Positions 37,345-50,073 of a DNA stretch of 64,000 nucleotides are shown piece by piece. Position 1 is the first letter of the stretch, and each line of letters starts with the position of its first letter. Made by a program: the position numbers and the translations under genes. Source of the DNA: Escherichia phage AV116; the sequence record OR352946.1; one strand, 5' to 3'. The notes beneath the pieces were generated by a model. That model was not told the origin of the DNA, searched no databases, and worked only from the letters and a program-made list of their open reading frames with translations.

Positions 37345-37647
37345 TTATTTACCTTTAATTACTTTAGCTGCTTCGATAGCCGCTTGCTGAAGGTCATCCA
37401 TAGACATACCAAATTTAGAAGCAAAGTTATCAATTTTCTTTTCGACAGCATTCAAAGGCTTGGCCTGTTTACCTTCATTAGCGCCAGGAAGAGCGAGAAT
37501 ACGCTCTTTGTCAATATAAAGGCTTACAAGTTTCTTACGGTCTTTATCGGACAAATCATGAAATGAATGGGCCTTTTTATTTATAGCGGCTTCTAATTTA
37601 CCTGCACTCACTCGCGCTTCAGTAATAAATTCTTGATATGTTTTCAT
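37345..37647 (-). CDS. ipII: internal protein II-like (capsid-targeted)
   Basis: 100 aa; N-terminal MKTYQEFITEA capsid-targeting sequence; resembles T4 IPII. Confidence 0.75.
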   Translation of the reverse strand: MKTYQEFITEARVSAGKLEAAINKKAHSFHDLSDKDRKKLVSLYIDKERILALPGANEGKQAKPLNAVEKKIDNFASKFGMSMDDLQQAAIEAAKVIKGK

Positions 37648-37710
37648 TTTTGTTTCCTTGTTTGTTTTGATAGAGTAATTATACCATATTAATACTTAAG
37701 CGTAAACAAT

Positions 37711-37971
37711 TTAAGCTTTACCGCCAGAAATAATTCCGAAGTTGTTAAAATCGTATCCAATATCGTCAACATCTACTTTAGGACTTACTACAACATAAGC
37801 AATTTCACTACGTTTTGCATAGGTGTTGATTTCTTTACCATCGCCACCTAAGAAAGAATACCCATTACGTTTTAATGAGCCAAAGTCTTCGGCATCACCA
37901 ATGAAAGCTTTAACTTTAAATTTAGGACCTTTGGCATCTGCTTCAGCGATAAATTCTTGATACATTTTCAT
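37711..37971 (-). CDS. internal protein with capsid-targeting sequence
   Basis: 86 aa; N-terminal MKMYQEFIAEA. Confidence 0.6.
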   Translation of the reverse strand: MKMYQEFIAEADAKGPKFKVKAFIGDAEDFGSLKRNGYSFLGGDGKEINTYAKRSEIAYVVVSPKVDVDDIGYDFNNFGIISGGKA

Positions 37972-37977
37972 TTTTCC

Positions 37978-38391
37978 TTAGTAAATTGATTTACCATAGT
38001 ATTTGTACCAAGTCGGACGTTGAGCAATTTTTTCATCTAAGCGTGCTTGACTTATCGCAATGGACGCTTCAGACGGGACGTAATTATTACGAAATTCTAT
38101 AGGAATGTCGGAAATATCCTGGACAGTCGTGTCCTTGATTTTGAAACCACGTTTCAAACATTCGGCTATTAGCTCGATTTGACGTAAACGTAAAAATTCG
38201 AGTTTGTCGTAAAAGAATGTTACGTGACCTGTGCCTAAGATAAATGTTGGAGAGATTTTAAAATCCTTTACACGTTTACCGTTTTGAACATGTTTACGGA
38301 CTGCACCAAATACGCGTGGTAATTCACGATACTCAGCCATAAGATGTTGGTCGGTCAGTTCAGAAACAAGTGTTAAATTGATACGGGTCAT
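37978..38391 (-). CDS. denV: pyrimidine dimer DNA glycosylase (endonuclease V) DenV
   Basis: Close match to T4 DenV ([34 protein letters not shown]); start set at internal Met by homology. Confidence 0.95.
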
Positions 38392-38449
38392 AATTTCCTC
38401 CAAGTAGTTGATGAATGTATAGTATCAAAGTCCTTGGAGGAAGTAAACA

Positions 38450-38731
38450 CTATTTTTCTGAAGCGCCTGAAATATATTTTTCAAGACGCTGTTTCATCAA
38501 CGAGCCGTTCTTAGCGATTTCTTCCGGTTTATCGCACATACGCAACAATGCTTCAAGCTTAGCGATATCGCTGGTACGTTCAAATTTGCGAGTATCTATC
38601 TTACTAGCAAGTTCAGAAATACGTGCTAATAGACTTTCAGCTTCAACCAAAGCTGCACCTAGCTTAGTTGCAAATGTGTCAGTAGCTTCGTTAAGAATAG
38701 ATTCTGATAAAAATTCACTATATGTTTTCAT
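38450..38731 (-). CDS. internal-protein-like protein with capsid-targeting sequence
   Basis: [11 protein letters not shown]-terminus; ATG overlaps the lysozyme stop (ATGA). Confidence 0.55.
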
Positions 38732-39216
38732 ATATACGCTTTCCAAGTTCCTGTTTTAAATGTTGAGATTACGCGTTTCGCGCGATTAGGTGTCTGACGA
38801 TACCATTTAGATTGGGCTAGATTTACTGCCGCTTCATCCCAACGTTTCTGTTGAAGCATACGAAGAGAATTAGTAAAACCGGCGACTCCTGCTACACCCA
38901 TTTGGAAGACCATATTGACCAATGCACACCGACGAACTGCATCTAAAGAATCATATACCGGTTTAAGTTTAGCATTACCCAAGATTCCGCGGACGGCTTT
39001 ATCAACGTCTTCATTAAATAGCTTTTCAGCCTCATCAAGGGTAATTGTACCGTTGCATTTACGACCGATCATTCTGTCAAGTTCAGCTTTAGCTATGGCT
39101 AAAGACGGGTTCTTTGTTACTAAATGGCCTATGCCAATTGTCCAAAAGCCTTCAGTGTCTTTGTATAAAGTCAGTCTAAGACCTTCGTCATTACGAAGCA
39201 TTTCAAATATATTCAT
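38728..39216 (-). CDS. e: lysozyme (endolysin) e
   Basis: [27 protein letters not shown] matches T4 lysozyme; GGAGG before the ATG at 39214-39216. Confidence 0.95.
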
Positions 39217-39250
39217 AATACCTCCCACGTTTATAGGAGGTATTTATTAC

Positions 39251-39709: not shown

Positions 39710-39935
39710 CTCGGTCCCATGATTTGGCCATTAATTCGGACATAAATTCTTCAATGCGCGTTTCTTTAGATGGACTTTCACTATTAGAGACCGCAAGTTT
39801 GTAATCTGCAATAGGACAGAACATATCAAGGTCCATATTAAGGTCGTCTTTGATTTTTTCTTCTGACACATCTTTATCGTATGTGTACAGATAACTATCA
39901 CATGATTCTGATTTAATGTAAATTGCTATACTCAT
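39699..39935 (-). CDS. hypothetical protein
   Basis: Start set at internal ATG (MSIAIYIK) overlapping the upstream stop. Confidence 0.4.
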   Translation of the reverse strand: MSIAIYIKSESCDSYLYTYDKDVSEEKIKDDLNMDLDMFCPIADYKLAVSNSESPSKETRIEEFMSELMAKSWDRDDE

Positions 39936-40156
39936 CTCAAATTCCTGCATTCGGTAATAAAACGTTCAACTTCATTATTCTTGTCTTTATGTTCTTGTAA
40001 ACTACTTTTAATAAGATTAATAATGATAGCGACAGTGCCGCCGCCAATGATGCCACCAATAATACTTACGATAGTAGATGTTAATAAGATAGCAATAATA
40101 TCAACAAAACCGAAAGAACTCACCTTAGTACTAAAAAAACCATATAGACGGTACAA
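39932..40156 (-). CDS. small membrane protein, FIxECR C-terminal family
   Basis: 74 aa; one TM helix; C-terminus ...VERFITECRNLR. Confidence 0.45.
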   Translation of the reverse strand: MYRLYGFFSTKVSSFGFVDIIAILLTSTIVSIIGGIIGGGTVAIIINLIKSSLQEHKDKNNEVERFITECRNLR

Positions 40157-41087: not shown

Positions 41088-41393
41088 TTATTTTCCTCGG
41101 CATTCTTTAATGAAATTTTCTAGATTGGTAGATTCAATAGCTTTTTTACGAGCTTCTGCATGTTCTTCTTCGGACAATTTACATTTATAATTGACCCAGA
41201 CATTATGGTCGAAACTAGTCGTGGCATATAATAACAATGCTCCAGCGAATAGCAAAAACGGTGATAAGAATACAAAACCAGGAACACCATCCATACTGTA
41301 AGCCTTTTGTAATACTGCAACAGAAAGAGCTGCGTAAAAAGGTGATGCAAATATTGTTAAAAGACCAATTCGGTTGGTTTCGCCTAATTTCAT
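41088..41393 (-). CDS. membrane protein, FIxECR C-terminal family
   Basis: 101 aa; two TM helices; C-terminus ...LENFIKECRGK. Confidence 0.5.
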   Translation of the reverse strand: MKLGETNRIGLLTIFASPFYAALSVAVLQKAYSMDGVPGFVFLSPFLLFAGALLLYATTSFDHNVWVNYKCKLSEEEHAEARKKAIESTNLENFIKECRGK

Positions 41394-41420: not shown

Positions 41421-41449
41421 TACTATAACATAATCCTATAATTATGTAA
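41421..41449 (-). promoter_or_regulatory. T4 early-type promoter (TTTACA-N17-TATAGT)
   Basis: Read from sequence upstream of the ORF at 41393. Confidence 0.5.
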
Positions 41450-41463
41450 ACAGTTTTGCGAAA

Positions 41464-42700: not shown

Positions 42701-42720
42701 TTAATTTGATAGGACTACTA

Positions 42721-42749
42721 TAACATAGCCCTATCTTGTTGTAAACTGT
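42721..42749 (-). promoter_or_regulatory. T4 early-type promoter (TTTACA-N17-TATAGT) with flanking inverted repeat
   Basis: Read from sequence upstream of the ORF at 42700. Confidence 0.5.
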
Positions 42750-42750
42750 T

Positions 42751-42948
42751 TTAGCAAGAATAACTAGATGATACCCAGCCTTGAACAGTGATACTATTGT
42801 GGGATAATGAGATCGCGTCCTGGAGATTCAGACCTGCGTTATCTTCAATCCATAATGTAACTTCTTCACGTTCTTCTGTTGCAATTTGGAACAGGTTTTC
42901 CAGGGCAGCTACTGCCGTACGTACAGCACAATCTAATTCACGAGACAT
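42751..42948 (-). CDS. small protein, GWVSSSxxC C-terminal family (paralog 3)
   Basis: 65 aa; ends ...QGWVSSSYSC. Confidence 0.5.
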   Translation of the reverse strand: MSRELDCAVRTAVAALENLFQIATEEREEVTLWIEDNAGLNLQDAISLSHNSITVQGWVSSSYSC

Positions 42949-42957
42949 ATTGTTTCC

Positions 42958-43230
42958 TTAGCAAGTGTGAGAAGATGCGACCCAACCACCAGTTTCGAGG
43001 CTCAGGTTGTAGTCGTATTGGTAAACGTCGGCCCATTCAGCATAGCCGTTTTTTGTACAACGTTCAAGATCAGCTTTAAGATGTCCGGGTGAATGATAGG
43101 TTCCGCCCATACCATAAGCCGGATACAAATTAAACGTGGTGTTTTGTTTATCAGCAATTTCTTTGGCAGCCTCAATAGCTGCATAGATTTTTGCTACAGC
43201 TTCAGCCAGTTCGGTTTGTTCTTTAGACAT
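42958..43230 (-). CDS. small protein, GWVSSSxxC C-terminal family (paralog 2)
   Basis: 90 aa; ends ...GGWVASSHTC. Confidence 0.5.
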   Translation of the reverse strand: MSKEQTELAEAVAKIYAAIEAAKEIADKQNTTFNLYPAYGMGGTYHSPGHLKADLERCTKNGYAEWADVYQYDYNLSLETGGWVASSHTC

Positions 43231-43239
43231 AATGATTCC

Positions 43240-43545
43240 TTAGCACAACGCAGAAGACGAAACCCAAGCACCTTCAGTAATAACGTAACCATTACCTTCA
43301 CGCTTAACATCGCCACCATTATTTTCAATTTCATTTTTCATCCACTGGGATACGATTTCACCCTTAGGATAATAAGTACGACCGCTACCATAATCACCTA
43401 CAGAAAATGATACGGCATATTGGTCTGCGATCTTTGTTGCTTCTTCTTCGATACGTTCAGCTTGATTCAGAAGTTTATAAATTGCATCTGAAGCGGATTT
43501 GGCATCATTAAACTCTGGTACTTTAATTTCAATAATCTTACTCAT
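43240..43545 (-). CDS. small protein, GWVSSSxxC C-terminal family (paralog 1)
   Basis: 101 aa; ends ...GAWVSSSALC. Confidence 0.5.
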   Translation of the reverse strand: MSKIIEIKVPEFNDAKSASDAIYKLLNQAERIEEEATKIADQYAVSFSVGDYGSGRTYYPKGEIVSQWMKNEIENNGGDVKREGNGYVITEGAWVSSSALC

Positions 43546-43901
43546 TTTCTACATTCCTTAATAAAGTTTTCGATTGTTTCATTTTCACGTTTAGCTAGAA
43601 GTTCATTATAACTAATCATTTGAGAAGCGTAAATCTTTTTATTTTTCTTGTTATGGTTTATAAAATCGTAGTAAAAATAGACTACAGTACAAAATGATGC
43701 GATGGATGCAAAGGCTTGGGTATACCGTAAGTCCTGCCATTGGTCTGTGAATCCACCAGTGTTCCCTATAAATCCTAACACAACGCCGTCAATAAGAAAT
43801 CCAACTAATCCAAAGGCAAATCCCATGCCAATACTCATAATAAAAATTAGAATGTTCTCACCAAGAGAAGGCCATATGGTTAAGAGTTGAGGCTTTTGCA
43901 T
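43542..43901 (-). CDS. membrane protein, FIxECR C-terminal family
   Basis: 119 aa; TM helices; C-terminus ...IENFIKECRK. Confidence 0.5.
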   Translation of the reverse strand: MQKPQLLTIWPSLGENILIFIMSIGMGFAFGLVGFLIDGVVLGFIGNTGGFTDQWQDLRYTQAFASIASFCTVVYFYYDFINHNKKNKKIYASQMISYNELLAKRENETIENFIKECRK

Positions 43902-44305
43902 CTTATTTCCTTAACGAATTCCATAGCTTCTTCATATTCATACTTTTTAACAGCTTCATCATACTGAGCTTGGGCTTTTGCGCACTGAACTTTCCATTCT
44001 CTTAATCGGGCTCTGTGATGACGGCCTTGGTGCCAATATCCTACCCAATTAATAGGCATTAATAAAAACGGTACAATAAGTGGTGCGACGAACATTAATG
44101 AAAATGCTGCATCAGACGATATAACTTCACTAGAATCTAAAACAGCTCCTATAATCATAAAGATTAAAAATGCTAAAGCTAAAATAGGGCCAAATAATAC
44201 TTCATTTGGGATTAATTTACGCTTGTATTCATACGCCCAGGGCTTACTTGGCATGTATAGGGTTGGCTTTGACATATTCTCTACATTCCATAATAAATTG
44301 CTCAA
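43880..44305 (-). CDS. membrane protein (related C-terminal motif EFVKEIRC)
   Basis: 141 aa; two TM helices. Confidence 0.5.
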   Translation of the reverse strand: MSNLLWNVENMSKPTLYMPSKPWAYEYKRKLIPNEVLFGPILALAFLIFMIIGAVLDSSEVISSDAAFSLMFVAPLIVPFLLMPINWVGYWHQGRHHRARLREWKVQCAKAQAQYDEAVKKYEYEEAMEFVKEIRCKSLNS

Positions 44306-44867
44306 GGATTAAATTGTTAGTGAAATTAGGACTAACAACCATAGTTTCATAAAGCGCATCAATAGCACTTAAAGCATCAACTCTTTTAAGCAAAGGCTTG
44401 CCTTCATACATAGTTTCAGAATCGATGATTAACGTAAAGTAATATTTTTTATTATCGACTAGAACTTCTGTATCGATATAAAACATATTAGACCTCAGAA
44501 GCTTATCTCTAAAGCCATAATAATCTTCAGAGCGTTCGCTGATATATTCCCATTCAGTGTTTAAACAACAAACAGACCACGTAGGAGCAACGAAATCAGT
44601 GAATCTAATATCATGGTCTGCAACTAGTTTAGCAATAGCTCCGATATCATGAATCATAATACCTGGGGCTAATAAAGATTTTCTGCTATGGCTAGCCGTT
44701 TTCTCGGTGGTCTCATAAGAAGACGACCAGTACCATTTACGTCCAGTTGCAACATATCGTAATGAATCAACTAAAGACGTAGGTGGATTTACCTTATCTC
44801 GGAACTCTTCGAACATTGAGTCAATATCATTATTTTGGTTTCGCATGTTAACTCCTTTATTATCCAA
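44244..44867 (-). CDS. hypothetical protein (C-terminal QFIMECR motif)
   Basis: 207-aa ORF. Confidence 0.5.
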   Translation of the reverse strand: MDNKGVNMRNQNNDIDSMFEEFRDKVNPPTSLVDSLRYVATGRKWYWSSSYETTEKTASHSRKSLLAPGIMIHDIGAIAKLVADHDIRFTDFVAPTWSVCCLNTEWEYISERSEDYYGFRDKLLRSNMFYIDTEVLVDNKKYYFTLIIDSETMYEGKPLLKRVDALSAIDALYETMVVSPNFTNNLILEQFIMECREYVKANPIHAK

Positions 44868-46412: not shown

Positions 46413-46449
46413 ACTTTGTGAAAAATTTATCTGCCCTAGATGCCCGAAA

Positions 46450-46470
46450 GCCCCAACCATAGGAAGGGGC
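46450..46470 (-). terminator. terminator-like hairpin (GCCCCUUCC...GGUUGGGGC family), weak U tract
   Basis: Same hairpin architecture as 32097..32118 and 47167..47188; immediately 3' of the ORF ending at 46490. Confidence 0.4.
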
Positions 46471-46489
46471 TTAAGTGATTGTAACTTAA

Positions 46490-47116
46490 TTATTTACGGG
46501 TTTTTGCATACTGAGCAGCGTCAGCAGCCAAACGACCTGCCTGACGAAGTTTTTCTTTAATCTCATCGTGAAGTGGTTGAGTGTACTTCAAACCTTCAAT
46601 AGTCAAATAAAGACGATAAAGGTCTGGGGTATCAAGGTTGTTGATATGTTGGCCATTACGAAGACTGTTGAATTCACGAACGAGTGAAGATGTATCGGAT
46701 TCAATATCACGAACAAGCGAAGATAGTTGTTTATATTTTTTTTCCAGGCTAGAAGTATCAAACTTAAGAGCAGGAGCTTTAGGAGTTGCTTTTACTTCCG
46801 GCTTAGGCTCAGGTTTTGCTACTGCTTTAGGGGTCGCAGGTTTAGGAGTGGTAGGAGCAGGTTTTACTTTAGGCGAACCAGATTTAGCAGAAACACCACC
46901 ACTAACAATATCTTTGAATGCTTTAGAAGCTCTGTAATATTCTTTTTGGCTGGAAGTGTCGATACCGTACATGGCTTGAACGTTTTTGAAAAACTCTGTA
47001 CTAGTTTTTGTACCAGAAATAGCATCGTAAGCAGCTTGCCACTTCTCTTTTGTCATACGTACACCGGCTTCGGTGATTACTTCCGTTTCGGCTAAAAATT
47101 CATTAAAAGTATACAT
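46490..47116 (-). CDS. internal-protein-like protein with capsid-targeting-like N-terminus and Pro/Lys/Ala-rich linker
   Basis: 208 aa; N-terminal MYTFNEFLAETE; central PKVKPAPTTPKPATPKAVAKPEPKPEVKATPKAP. Confidence 0.55.
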   Translation of the reverse strand: MYTFNEFLAETEVITEAGVRMTKEKWQAAYDAISGTKTSTEFFKNVQAMYGIDTSSQKEYYRASKAFKDIVSGGVSAKSGSPKVKPAPTTPKPATPKAVAKPEPKPEVKATPKAPALKFDTSSLEKKYKQLSSLVRDIESDTSSLVREFNSLRNGQHINNLDTPDLYRLYLTIEGLKYTQPLHDEIKEKLRQAGRLAADAAQYAKTRK

Positions 47117-47151: not shown

Positions 47152-47159
47152 TATTTATA
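47152..47159 (-). promoter_or_regulatory. T4 late promoter TATAAATA
   Basis: Plus tatttata is TATAAATA on the minus strand, about 35 bp upstream of the ATG at 47116. Confidence 0.55.
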
Positions 47160-47160
47160 C

Positions 47161-47188
47161 AAAAAAGCCCCAACCTTTCGGAAGGGGC
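47161..47188 (-). terminator. rho-independent terminator (GCCCCUUCC-GAAA-GGUUGGGGC plus U6)
   Basis: Hairpin 47167..47188 followed by a six-T run on the minus strand; terminates the tRNA-region transcript. Confidence 0.6.
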
Positions 47189-47231
47189 TATATACCTTGT
47201 CGGGGTTTCCACCTACTAGATAAGTGTTTGT

Positions 47232-47305
47232 ACGAAACGCCGGGATTCGAACCCGGTTATTAAGTAGTTGACGCTACTCAATATTTTTAAAAAGGCCATA
47301 TCTCG
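47232..47305 (-). ncRNA. tRNA-like element / degenerate tRNA (canonical T-arm, aberrant D and anticodon arms)
   Basis: Minus strand CCGGG-TTCGAAT-CCCGG T-arm and pairable acceptor (CGAGATA/CGTTTCG) but no clean cloverleaf; 6-nt anticodon-like loop. Confidence 0.25.
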
Positions 47306-47497
47306 ACCGTATCCGAACGTTCCGTCAAAAACGCTACTCGGCTTACGGCAAAGATATTTCCTCGAATCGATAATTCTGTGCGCCGTTTCTGCTGTGATGT
47401 AAGGGGATATTAACAAATCGTAAAGATTTATTAAGACCAGTCCTTACTCAGGGAACATCAGTCCGACGACTTGCCGGTAGCGACCCGGCTTCTTGTT

Positions 47498-47574
<77 letters not shown>

Positions 47575-47577
47575 TAA

Positions 47578-48243
47578 TTAAAATTTCATTTTTCGACCTT
47601 TAAACCATCCTTCTGGAATTGGGTCAGTTTTCTTAATACGTTTAGAAACTTTTTCATCTAATGAATGAATCCACATCATACCAAATTGGGAATTCTTTTC
47701 GCCCTGTTGATGTTTATTTCTGGCGTGAGATTCTTTCATTTTATTAATAGTTTCAAGAGTATGGGTCTTACCCAAGAAAGATTTAGTATTTAAAAATTTC
47801 TCTCTATACTTAGGATTATCCCAAAGCTGTTTAAACCTTTCTGAACCCATTTTACGATATTTTTCTTTAAGGTCTGGGTCGTTCTCAAATCTGGTTTTAA
47901 AAGCAGCAGCCCCTTTTAAGGAAGCTTCTTTCTTTTTATCCAAATATTCTTTAGTGTTTAAATGGTCCCAACCACCTTCACCACCTAATTTCAAATTATA
48001 AACATCAGGGCGCTTTAAAAACTCTTCAGTCACAATATTCTTTTCTGACTCAAACATAGAGGTTTTATCGTCAAAGAACTCTAATATTTCTTTAGAGAAA
48101 TTTTCTATACCATACTTGTCTTGGGCTCTTTTTAATAATTTACCAGAACCCATATATCCATCATCTAAATTTTCGGTAGAATGGGCGCCTATATAGATTT
48201 TATTATTAATTTTATTTGTTATTTTATAAGTGTAATGGAACAT
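47578..48243 (-). CDS. segB: GIY-YIG homing endonuclease (SegB-like) within the tRNA cluster
   Basis: 221 aa; YKITNKINNKIYIGAHS GIY-YIG motif; lies between two tRNA genes as segB does in T4. Confidence 0.75.
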   Translation of the reverse strand: MFHYTYKITNKINNKIYIGAHSTENLDDGYMGSGKLLKRAQDKYGIENFSKEILEFFDDKTSMFESEKNIVTEEFLKRPDVYNLKLGGEGGWDHLNTKEYLDKKKEASLKGAAAFKTRFENDPDLKEKYRKMGSERFKQLWDNPKYREKFLNTKSFLGKTHTLETINKMKESHARNKHQQGEKNSQFGMMWIHSLDEKVSKRIKKTDPIPEGWFKGRKMKF

Positions 48244-48284: not shown

Positions 48285-48356
48285 TGGCCCTGGCTGGTTT
48301 CGATCCAGCTACCTATCAGTTATGAGCTGACAGCTCTCCCATTGAGCTACAGGGCC
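48285..48356 (-). tRNA. tRNA with CAU anticodon (Met, or Ile2 if lysidine-modified); CCA not encoded
   Basis: Manual cloverleaf: acceptor GGCCCTG/CAGGGCC, D-stem GCTC/GAGC, anticodon arm GTCAG-CTCATAA-CTGAT, T-arm GCTGG-ATCGAAA-CCAGC. Confidence 0.85.
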
Positions 48357-49357: not shown

Positions 49358-49621
49358 TTATTTCAAATATATTGCGTATTTTTTATAGCCACCAGGCTCG
49401 TGTCGAAGACCTTTATCATTCGCAAAACGTTGAATGTTATTGAACTGATTTTCATCAAGTTCGGATGTGTCAAATACGAAAAAGTTTCGTTTGTTACCAA
49501 GCGTGATATGCGGAGTTAAGTCAATATTATACAAATTAAGAATATCAGCAATAACCTGATTGACCGCTTTGTTAATTTTCACACCAGATGATTCTGAGAT
49601 GAATTCGTTGAAAGTTTTCAT
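49358..49621 (-). CDS. internal-protein-like protein with capsid-targeting sequence
   Basis: N-terminal MKTFNEFISES; start set at internal Met of the track ORF. Confidence 0.5.
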   Translation of the reverse strand: MKTFNEFISESSGVKINKAVNQVIADILNLYNIDLTPHITLGNKRNFFVFDTSELDENQFNNIQRFANDKGLRHEPGGYKKYAIYLK

Positions 49622-49643
49622 TTTAGGTTCCATTTGGTTGTTT

Positions 49644-49672
49644 TGATAGGACTACTATAACATAGTCCTATC
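49644..49672 (-). promoter_or_regulatory. T4 early-type promoter (TTTACA-N17-TATAGT) with perfect 9-bp flanking inverted repeat
   Basis: GATAGGACT/AGTCCTATC arms bracket the -10 region. Confidence 0.5.
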
Positions 49673-49682
49673 GTGTTGTAAA

Positions 49683-49994
49683 TTATTTTATGCCTTTAGA
49701 AGAAATGGTATTTTGGCGTTTAACCCCTGTTTGTGAAAAATCGTGGTTATCGATTTGGTCGACTCGCATAACACCAAATGCAGATTTAATTTTAGCCTTT
49801 GAACCTTTTTTGATACTAATTATCATATAAGTATCATTTTTCTTATATTCGAAATTTGTTACTTCAACGCCTTGATTAGAAATTGACTTAATAATAGCAT
49901 TAGCGTATTCATCATCTAACGGACCGGTGGTGTTAATAATAAAATTTTTATCGGCTTTAGTAGCTTCAGCGATAAACTCTTGATAAGTTTTCAT
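49683..49994 (-). CDS. ipI: internal protein I-like (capsid-targeted)
   Basis: 103 aa; N-terminal MKTYQEFIAEA; immediately downstream of 57B as ipI is in T4. Confidence 0.6.
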   Translation of the reverse strand: MKTYQEFIAEATKADKNFIINTTGPLDDEYANAIIKSISNQGVEVTNFEYKKNDTYMIISIKKGSKAKIKSAFGVMRVDQIDNHDFSQTGVKRQNTISSKGIK

Positions 49995-50073
49995 TTGTTT
50001 TTTCCGTTTGGTTTGTGATTTGATATGATGATAGTATCACACCATCATCCTTATGTAAACTGTTTTGTGAAAA

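Follow-up and report, generated by a model that had tools for sequence, protein, structure and literature searches.

Escherichia phage AV116 probably encodes six internal proteins (Ips), head-packaged and ejected, the sixth of which, a 208-aa protein, would represent an unannotated Ip family encoded at a third locus; we put the probability of this reading at roughly 0.7. The 64-kb window, meaning the whole stretch of DNA that was analysed, is T4-like and belongs to Mosigvirus (RB69-like). A regular-expression scan of its six frames returned six matches to the capsid-targeting sequence (CTS) motif and none elsewhere, every one at the start of an ORF on the coding strand. By chance, 4e-6 matches to the strict motif would be expected, and 200 mononucleotide shuffles of the window gave none. 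The scan confirms the original prediction that six ORFs start with a T4-type CTS, although the motif as it was written there is exact in only four of them, because position 2 is Tyr and not Lys in the 208-aa ORF, and position 9 is Thr in the IPII-like one. Since all six ORFs lie on the minus strand, the positions by which they were first listed are their stop-codon ends. Five of the six belong to families already named internal head or virion protein in PHROG or RefSeq, one of these being an ortholog that shares 93% identity with T4 IPII, and the proposed identity as T4-type internal proteins is supported for them; the 208-aa ORF is thus the sole new lead. Two classical Ip loci, e/denV and the neighbourhood of gene 57B, hold the five, and the 208-aa ORF is outside both. 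The features at the e/denV locus are as follows, a slash marking the predicted cut.

37345..37647, minus strand: IPII ortholog, 100 aa, leader MKTYQEFITE/A; PHROG 7857 'internal virion protein', E=4.5e-55
37678..37706, minus strand: early-type (sigma-70-like) promoter TTTACG-17-TATAAT, preceding the IPII ortholog
37711..37971, minus strand: 86-aa Ip, leader MKMYQEFIAE/A; PHROG 2667 'internal head protein', E=4e-21
38450..38731, minus strand: 93-aa Ip, predicted cut before S, second site ILNE/A at residue 15; PHROG 3499 'internal head protein', E=2e-46

The identity between the IPII ortholog and T4 IPII, both of 100 aa, was measured over 88 residues outside the leader, and phage mogra names this gene ipII. 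The 86-aa Ip, which starts 6 nt past denV, is homologous to RB69p125 'internal head protein' and occurs in 217 phage records. The 93-aa Ip is homologous to RB69p127 and occurs in 496 phage records; its ATG (38731) and the stop codon of the lysozyme gene e overlap as ATGA. Mechanical ORF calls begin upstream both for the 93-aa Ip (TTG at 38746) and for Ip9 (ATG at 49633, 'MEPK'), but the MKT... ATGs are likely the true starts of the two, and relatives annotate the 87-aa form of Ip9. An ipIII gene is missing from the window: the gap between the IPII ortholog and the 86-aa ORF is just 63 bp long, and in mogra this interval holds an ipIII of 579 bp. The second classical locus, beside gene 57B, holds the following.

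49358..49621, minus strand: Ip9, 87 aa, leader MKTFNEFISE/S; PHROG 7673 'internal head protein', E=5e-49
49654..49682, minus strand: early-type promoter preceding Ip9, with a stem-loop spanning the -10 element
49683..49994, minus strand: Ip7, 103 aa, leader MKTYQEFIAE/A, adjoining gene 57B; PHROG 2667, E=2e-38
50031..50059, minus strand: early-type promoter preceding Ip7

Ip9 is so named in mogra, RB32 and VR25, and relatives label Ip7 'Ip7 protein' or 'internal head protein 7'; the leader of the latter is identical to the T4 IPII/IPIII CTS. The AF2 model of Ip7 is a small alpha/beta fold of modest confidence (pLDDT 66). An IPI*-like fold was considered for it and rejected, the best Foldseek hit against the PDB having E=0.06 and the matches being unrelated ACT/RRM-like folds. 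BLASTP detected no similarity between T4 IPI and any of the five non-IPII ORFs, Ip7 and Ip9 included, and these two had no sequence match in the PDB either.

What identifies the leader as a capsid-targeting sequence? In T4, the first 10 residues of IPIII are enough for packaging, residues 4 and 7 serve targeting and residues 8 and 10 processing, and gp21 cleaves after L/I-x-E to remove propeptides of 10-19 residues (PMC9026906). All six ORFs have Y/F at position 4, F at position 7 and an [IL]-x-E that ends at residue 10, keeping I/L8 and E10, so that the equation of this N-terminus with the T4 capsid-targeting sequence agrees with the published functional data in every case. A second [IL]-x-E site ends at residue 15 of the 93-aa ORF and at residue 16 of the 208-aa ORF. 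With the first 12 residues removed, an all-versus-all BLASTP search linked the IPII ortholog to T4 IPII (E=3e-58) and, weakly, Ip7 to Ip9 (E=9e-4), and returned no other match; beyond the leader, the six proteins appear essentially unrelated to one another and to T4 IPI and IPIII. A shared N-terminus on such divergent proteins could instead be a by-product of nucleotide recombination, or reflect a shared translation-initiation region, and have no targeting function. The DNA around the ATG is moderately conserved and gene swapping is well known at Ip loci, as that explanation would have it. However, the leader codons vary at synonymous positions while the peptide is kept, the ribosome-binding regions upstream are not conserved, the retained residues are exactly those that suppressor genetics found important, and a Kagunavirus siphophage, unrelated to these phages, carries an Ip9 homolog that consists of the mature domain and lacks the leader. 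We regard a leader devoid of targeting function as highly improbable.

The 208-aa ORF matches PHROG 2280, a family of unknown function, with E=2.1e-58, its residues 1-203 aligning to profile positions 1-178 of 178. Its relatives occur in 138 phage records, JK42, p000v and LF82-1 being close relatives of AV116 with the gene, and are 'hypothetical' or unannotated in all rows among the matches listed, and PHROG 2280 is not among the named Ip families in any annotation seen. Homologs down to about 33% identity (33-70%), together with profile hits, keep a leader of the form M-x-x-[FY]-x-[ED]-[FI]-[LIV]-x-E, relatives from five genera retain it, and most family members have a second [IL]-x-E-[AS]. 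Position 2, usually Lys, is Tyr in the AV116 protein and Leu, Ile or Lys in its homologs, and one distant member (P0027) is without Glu10. The second site of the 208-aa protein, ITE/A, appears to match the processing site of T4 IPI, a site itself deduced from the T4 IPI sequence, the 76-residue mature form (PMC3012670) and the 10-19-residue propeptides (PMC9026906). The AF2 model (pLDDT 71) comprises N- and C-terminal helical domains joined by a disordered linker at residues 78-117, and in some homologs the C-terminal domain has been exchanged. The description of the protein as Pro/Lys/Ala-rich applies to this 40-residue linker (68% P+K+A) and does not extend to the protein as a whole (29%). 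In a Foldseek search of the PDB the model gave nothing significant, only generic helical hairpins, and in BFVD its matches were confined to uncharacterised homologs of the same protein; sequence and profile searches of the PDB returned nothing, and Pfam and NCBIfam gave only sub-threshold compositional matches to TonB/PspC proline-rich regions. We rejected, as a general rule, the idea that the 208-aa protein replaces the absent IPIII. No homology beyond the leader was found by hhalign, which gave probabilities of 26% and 9% and aligned only residues 1-27, and both genes co-occur in p000v, S143_2, ESCO47, Marfa, MY02 and AnYang; with the two together in many genomes, neither simply stands in for the other.

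The 208-aa gene is located just past the tRNA/rnaC region and before the e.8 position, in the following arrangement.

46443..46472, minus strand: second copy of the hairpin, immediately 3' of the 208-aa stop codon; direct-repeat family D2, 23 nt at 78%
46490..47116, minus strand: 208-aa candidate Ip, leader MYTFNEFLAE/T, second site VITE/A at residue 16; PHROG 2280, function unknown
47152..47159, minus strand: T4 late promoter TATAAATA, a perfect match, 43 nt 5' of the 208-aa ATG
47160..47189, minus strand: terminator hairpin (GCCCCTTCCGAAAGGTTGGGGC followed by a T-run), closing the tRNA/rnaD/rnaC unit; upstream copy of the direct repeat; -16.4 kcal/mol, z = -3.5

The rnaC and rnaD homologs were identified by BLAST against T4, and Rfam reported two tRNAs only near the cassette. 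The promoter at -43, which comes directly after the terminator, is the sole intergenic perfect late promoter within 36.5-51.6 kb, and it is conserved in JS98 and PG7, at -36 and -35. None of the five classical Ip genes has a late promoter of its own; each either has an early-type promoter directly upstream or is linked to denV or e by co-transcription or coupling. T4 Ips are produced both early and late. At the corresponding locus, T4 has one hairpin and no gene, and the 3' continuation of that hairpin resembles the downstream copy in AV116. The paired hairpins and the single-hairpin empty site of T4 fit gain and loss by recombination between the repeats. The same cassette, in the same synteny (tRNAs, then the 208-aa gene, then e.8 or its position), is found in Dhakavirus, Karamvirus, Winklervirus and Marfavirus, and mogra and RB69 have different ORFs at this locus, starting MKSYAEFLTE and MKTYAEFLTE. 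The module is reminiscent of the PeSL cassettes, promoter/terminator stem-loops through which modules of T4-type genomes are reported to be shuffled (PMC2839356, PMC4122927): a terminator, promoter, gene and hairpin lie between repeated stem-loops, with T4 providing the single-hairpin 'empty site'. Unlike in those cassettes, the promoter is late (TATAAATA) and the repeat is the tRNA/rnaC terminator, not an early-promoter stem-loop. The balance tips slightly toward PHROG 2280 being an unrecognised head-packaged, injected family that occupies a third Ip locus after tRNA/rnaC, occurs in at least five T4-like genera, has its own late promoter, is modular (CTS, N-domain, flexible Pro/Lys/Ala linker and exchangeable C-domain) and is gained or lost via the duplicated terminator hairpins.

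A late promoter of its own and a position outside both recognised Ip loci would also suit a late protein that needs its leader only for entry into the prohead core, where it would aid assembly or the scaffold as gp67 and gp68 do before being degraded or expelled, or one that is not packaged at all, rather than an injected effector. The coiled helical two-domain build with its long linker and without a recognisable inhibitor fold, and an extra internal I-x-E at residue 188, would agree with such a role, and T4 IPIII too has a head-assembly phenotype (PMC9026906). Yet the gene sits in a variable region, far away from the cluster of head genes, and a locus with different CTS-bearing ORFs in mogra and RB69, together with C-domains swapped in some homologs, is typical of accessory or arms-race genes and not of assembly factors. 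Residue 188 is moreover the only candidate protease site beyond the N-terminal region, whereas core proteins are cut into many fragments, and T4 lacks the gene, which must therefore be dispensable for the conserved assembly pathway. We consider a protein of this kind, whether an assembly accessory or unpackaged, quite unlikely.

If the 208-aa protein and the other five are indeed injected, how would they act? By analogy with the T4 Ips, the N-terminal ~10 residues would serve as the CTS and bind the gp22 scaffolding core during prohead assembly, and the gp21 prohead protease would cut after Glu10 (L/I-x-E), freeing the mature protein inside the head; a further cut may follow at Glu15 in the 93-aa and Glu16 in the 208-aa protein. 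The mature proteins, as in T4, would remain with the packaged DNA and accompany it into the cell, where they would act ahead of any phage gene expression, their putative targets being either modification-dependent nucleases (type IV, GmrSD-family) or other defences of the host's first response. The 208-aa gene would contribute to this set as a self-contained late-promoter cassette at the third locus. The gp21 protease and gp22 scaffold are core genes of T4-related phages (PMC9026906) and, by T4 synteny, would be encoded in the head-gene cluster beyond the window end. For the five ORFs other than the IPII ortholog, capsid targeting, and with it packaging, N-terminal processing, injection and anti-defence activity, is predicted from sequence. 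Literature searches turned up neither virion proteomics nor N-terminal mapping nor data on injection for the five non-IPII families in this clade or for any PHROG 2280 member. A Jiaodavirus virion data set reports only annotated Ips with high counts.

T4 IPI, IPII and IPIII are CTS-bearing, gp21-processed and injected (PMC3012670, PMC9026906), and each of T4 Ip1, Ip2 and Ip3 inhibits a GmrSD type IV nuclease of its own (Silas 2025, PMC12373910), as a second source also reports for IPIII. In experiments on the T4 protein, Ip2 inhibits the ECOR21-type GmrSD nuclease (PMC12373910). The IPII ortholog of AV116 should therefore, by its similarity, probably share the target class of T4 Ip2; Mosigvirus DNA is hypermodified by arabinosylation and sensitive to cutting by BrxU, an enzyme of the GmrSD family (PMC13390438), whereas that of T4 carries glucosyl-hmC. 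The Ips of AV116 could also be mainly basic DNA counter-ions or packing aids, with anti-defence activity the exception, a view compatible with all six being head-packaged and ejected. The mature forms of four of the six AV116 proteins are basic (pI 9.0-9.7), the 208-aa linker is rich in lysine and proline, and the mature 208-aa protein, with a pI of about 9.6, is similar to T4 IPIII in size, charge and pI; in T4, lysines of internal proteins were seen by solid-state NMR to touch DNA phosphates (PMC3012670). On the other hand, the remaining two mature proteins are near neutral (pI 6.3-6.4), specific nuclease targets are now known for all three T4 Ips (PMC12373910), and the extreme sequence turnover is more in keeping with an arms race than with the neutralisation of charge in bulk. 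The frequent presence of IPIII and the 208-aa family in one genome is a further point against such a general role. T4 IPIII expressed in the host without its CTS still rescues infection, and hence IPIII acts in the cytoplasm. A mainly counter-ion function for these Ips is unlikely.

Compared with T4, the AV116 Ips follow the same 10-residue leader logic and L/I-x-E site, with small size and unrelated mature domains, and five of them occupy the same two neighbourhoods (e/denV and 57B), with one true ortholog. AV116 differs from T4 in lacking orthologs of IPI and IPIII and in carrying six Ip genes where T4 has three, one of the six at a third locus at which T4 has no gene. The order along the e/denV locus also differs, running e, Ip, denV, Ip, IPII in AV116 and e, ipIII, ipII, denV in T4. 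Six Ips per genome is typical of Mosigvirus, and RB69 has about seven. Repoila et al. (1994) reportedly described polymorphic Ip sets in T-even/RB phages, with 'at least 10' Ips. Five of the six ORFs belong to these sets (Ip7 and Ip9 of RB32, VR25 and mogra; RB69), but the 208-aa family does not. The idea of the original prediction, an injected arsenal of diverse CTS-bearing Ips, is already in textbooks and in recent literature as a means against restriction. The T4 internal proteins and their CTS were reportedly treated by Mullaney and Black in 1996, Bair and Black are said to have described T4 Ips as specific GmrSD type IV inhibitors in 2007, and most of the Ip interpretation, sound in itself, is already in print (Repoila 1994, Rao and Black 2010, Silas 2025).

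The biology of these genes is ordinary, with the addition of one modest new candidate Ip family. The practical gain is limited to a family, widespread but unannotated, and a previously unrecognised locus that should enter the catalogue; the remainder confirms existing annotation. Host immunity meets injected internal proteins before any other phage molecule, and the clade includes many phage-therapy isolates; a correct catalogue of CTS-bearing genes points experimenters to the small "hypothetical" ORFs worth testing for anti-defence activity in therapeutic T4-like phages. If the 208-aa family is indeed injected, the different CTS-bearing ORFs that mogra and RB69 carry at the same position would mark the site as a third arsenal locus with hypervariable content, possibly directed against defences other than GmrSD.

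Six ORFs of the window, all on the minus strand, carry genuine T4-type leaders at their starts, as the original prediction held, and PHROG places five of them in families labelled internal head or virion protein:

37345-37647, minus strand: IPII ortholog, 100 aa, PHROG 7857
37711-37971, minus strand: 86-aa ORF, PHROG 2667
38450-38731, minus strand: 93-aa ORF, PHROG 3499
46490-47116, minus strand: 208-aa ORF, PHROG 2280 (full-length match, function unknown)
49358-49621, minus strand: Ip9, 87 aa, PHROG 7673
49683-49994, minus strand: Ip7, 103 aa, PHROG 2667

A six-frame regular-expression scan of the 64 kb found the leader motif six times and no more, each time at an ORF start; chance expectation by analytic estimate is 4e-6 for the strict and 0.016 for the loose motif, and in 200 shuffles of the window the strict motif never occurred and the loose one averaged 0.01 occurrences per window. 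The motif as first written needs amending at two residues, position 2 of the 208-aa ORF being Tyr and position 9 of the IPII-like ORF Thr, and a mechanical ORF list gives spurious upstream starts for two of the ORFs. Is this leader the T4 capsid-targeting sequence (CTS)? The first 10 residues of IPIII suffice for incorporation into the T4 head, CTS residues 4 and 7 are the main determinants of targeting and 8 and 10 of processing, gp21 cleaves after L/I-x-E, and propeptides of internal proteins (Ips) are 10-19 residues long (PMC9026906). All six ORFs possess Y/F4, F7, I/L8 and E10, which, together with the five PHROG assignments, supports the proposed capsid-targeting interpretation, and the Ip7 leader, MKTYQEFIAE, is that of T4 IPII and IPIII. 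The mature parts are mutually unrelated, save for a weak match between Ip7 and Ip9. Among the ORFs the leader codons vary synonymously and upstream sequence shows no conservation, so the peptide is what selection maintains. Modularity is independently indicated by a leaderless 72-aa ORF, 57% identical to Ip9 residues 14-87, in vB_EcoS-K1_SXAU_B4 (record L010, 1507-1725), a 44.6-kb Kagunavirus siphophage unrelated to the window phage; phage YX22 (155 kb) has a weaker match. The effector domain of Ip9 can thus stand alone as an accessory gene, and the CTS has the look of an address tag added on.

Gene content bears out a T4-like layout, with lysozyme e (38728-39228), denV (37978-38403), 57B, 57A, gene 1, tRNA-Arg and tRNA-Met present. 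The 37.2-39.3 kb region matched 738 phage records, the closest (98-99% identity) being the Escherichia/Shigella Mosigvirus (RB69 group) phages G2469, AV118, SHSML-52-1 and mogra. The gene order e, Ip(93), denV, Ip(86), IPII is that of RB69, unlike T4, where it is e, ipIII, ipII, denV. The window lacks ipIII, and just 63 bp (37648-37710) separate the IPII ortholog from the 86-aa ORF; mogra instead has a 579-bp ipIII at this point, approximately 93% identical to T4 IPIII as read by eye from the alignment, and matches in G2469, AV109 and AV114 are about 620 bp longer here, presumably owing to ipIII. Only 261 phage records in total contain IPIII, which marks it as a gene often gained or lost. An ATGA overlap translationally couples the 93-aa ORF to e, the 86-aa ORF begins 6 nt after denV, and an early-type promoter lies directly upstream of each of the IPII ortholog, Ip9 and Ip7. 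In RB69, the homolog of the 93-aa Ip (RB69p127; record L005, 4923-5204) starts MKTYMNFYQNLSLNEA, unlike the window ORF. Judged by eye at codon level, a short local frame shift seems to have removed the CTS and left the second LNE|A site intact; either targeting has really been lost in RB69 or its reference genome contains a sequencing error.

Other repeated elements of the window comprise three early-type promoters with the near-identical core TTTACA...ATAGG(A/G)(C/T)TATGTTATAGTAGTCC and a stem-loop across the -10 element, and two sets of ORFs with shared C-terminal motifs, one of five small, partly membrane-like ORFs, which look like paralogous families:

49654-49682, 42717-42745 and 41422-41450, minus strand: stem-loop early-type promoters
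39932-40156, 41088-41393, 43542-43901, 43880-44305 and 44244-44867, minus strand: ORFs sharing ...F[IV][KTM]E[CI]R...
42751-42948, 42958-43230 and 43240-43545, minus strand: adjacent ORFs ending WV[SA]SS..C

The promoters resemble the promoter stem-loop (PeSL) cassettes of T4-type phages, which have been proposed as mediators of modular gene shuffling (PMC2839356, PMC4122927).

What might the five classical Ips do? They are named ipII, Ip7, Ip9 or 'internal head protein' in mogra, RB69, RB32, VR25 and others, and from family membership they are very likely packaged, processed and ejected. Repoila 1994, as cited in PMC12373910, numbers the T-even Ips at 'at least 10', and RB69 has approximately seven CTS-type ORFs, so six is normal for a Mosigvirus. 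Anti-defence function has been shown only for T4 Ip1-3, each of which inhibits a different GmrSD type IV nuclease (PMC12373910), inhibition by IPIII also being reported in a second paper. The cytosines of Mosigvirus DNA are arabinosylated, and BrxU, an enzyme of the GmrSD family, cuts this DNA (PMC13390438), which makes such enzymes a plausible target class here. The IPII ortholog, 93% identical to T4 IPII, would by that likeness share its anti-defence function; for the remaining Ips such a function is speculative. A structural or DNA-charge role of Ips is a rival reading, though the two are non-exclusive.

The 208-aa ORF occupies a third locus, in a cassette with its own expression signals:

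47378-47493, minus strand: T4 rnaD homolog (87% identity), upstream of the cassette
47231-47370, minus strand: T4 rnaC homolog (98% identity), upstream of the cassette
47189-47160, minus strand: terminator hairpin, directly before the late promoter
47159-47152, minus strand: perfect T4 late promoter TATAAATA, 43 nt before the ATG
Between late promoter and ATG, minus strand: good Shine-Dalgarno, TAAGGA
46472-46443, minus strand: second hairpin, directly after the stop codon

No other intergenic sequence between 36.5 and 51.6 kb matches the late promoter perfectly. The gene holds the same position (tRNA cluster, gene, e.8 or its position) in JS98 (Dhakavirus), PG7 (Karamvirus), CBH8 (Winklervirus) and Marfa (Marfavirus), with TATAAATA at -36 in JS98 and -35 in PG7 and one-mismatch versions in the other two. 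T4 lacks the gene and carries a single terminator hairpin after rnaC; the 3' continuation of that hairpin is like the window's downstream copy, and stem and loop agree with either copy, an arrangement compatible with gain or loss of the cassette through recombination between the two direct repeats. The rnaC and rnaD homologs, for which Rfam has no model, lie between tRNA-Arg and the cassette; at the equivalent site a 345-nt 'hypothetical protein' ORF, probably spurious, is annotated in the three relatives examined (RB69ORF150c, mogra_133, F27_0143). Between tRNA-Arg (47498-47574) and tRNA-Met (48285-48356) lies a 221-aa homing endonuclease (47578-48243, minus strand), judged GIY-YIG and segB-like by eye from sequence and position in T4; approximately 18-30% of this region is unmatched in most close relatives, which may reflect absence of the gene.

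Several independent observations, among them the expression signals, the conserved cassette and the empty T4 site, argue that the 208-aa protein is a genuine Ip. The leader, M-x-x-[FY]-x-[ED]-[FI]-[LIV]-x-E, is kept in homologs down to approximately 33% identity and in profile matches among 1.8 billion representative proteins. Most family members have a second [IL]-x-E-[AS] near residue 16, with Glu16 invariant in a first nine-sequence alignment; in the window protein it is ITE|A, matching the T4 IPI processing site deduced from the IPI sequence and its 76-residue mature form (PMC3012670). Different CTS-bearing genes annotated hypothetical occupy the locus in mogra (154 aa, MKSYAEFLTE) and RB69 (ORF149c, MKTYAEFLTE). 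ORF149c overlaps ORF148c (L005, 13429-13991) and contains 'MYNIDTSS', recalling the 208-aa family; the two look like a single gene split by a frameshift. The AlphaFold2 model (mean pLDDT 71) has two helical domains, at residues of approximately 20-72 and 120-206, with a disordered linker (74-112) between them. The Pro/Lys/Ala richness originally ascribed to the protein is confined to a 40-residue linker (residues 78-117; 68% P+K+A, against 29% overall). Of the linker, composition alone is conserved in the family, and some members carry a different C-terminal domain. Searches of the PDB by fold and by sequence gave nothing significant, and the only BFVD matches were uncharacterised relatives of the protein itself. 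The predicted mature protein is approximately 22 kDa with a pI of 9.6. On the strength of its leader and late promoter, of the conserved second cleavage site and of the different CTS-bearing genes that occupy the locus, we put the probability that the family is packaged, processed and ejected at roughly 0.6-0.65, the main rival for the 208-aa protein being a pure assembly role.

The set of six leader-bearing ORFs and its reading as injected anti-restriction proteins are largely a rediscovery of known biology. All matches listed among 138 phage records are annotated 'hypothetical protein' or not at all for the 208-aa family, and what is new is this family itself, a candidate group of Ips that is widespread and unannotated and lies in a cassette-like third locus.
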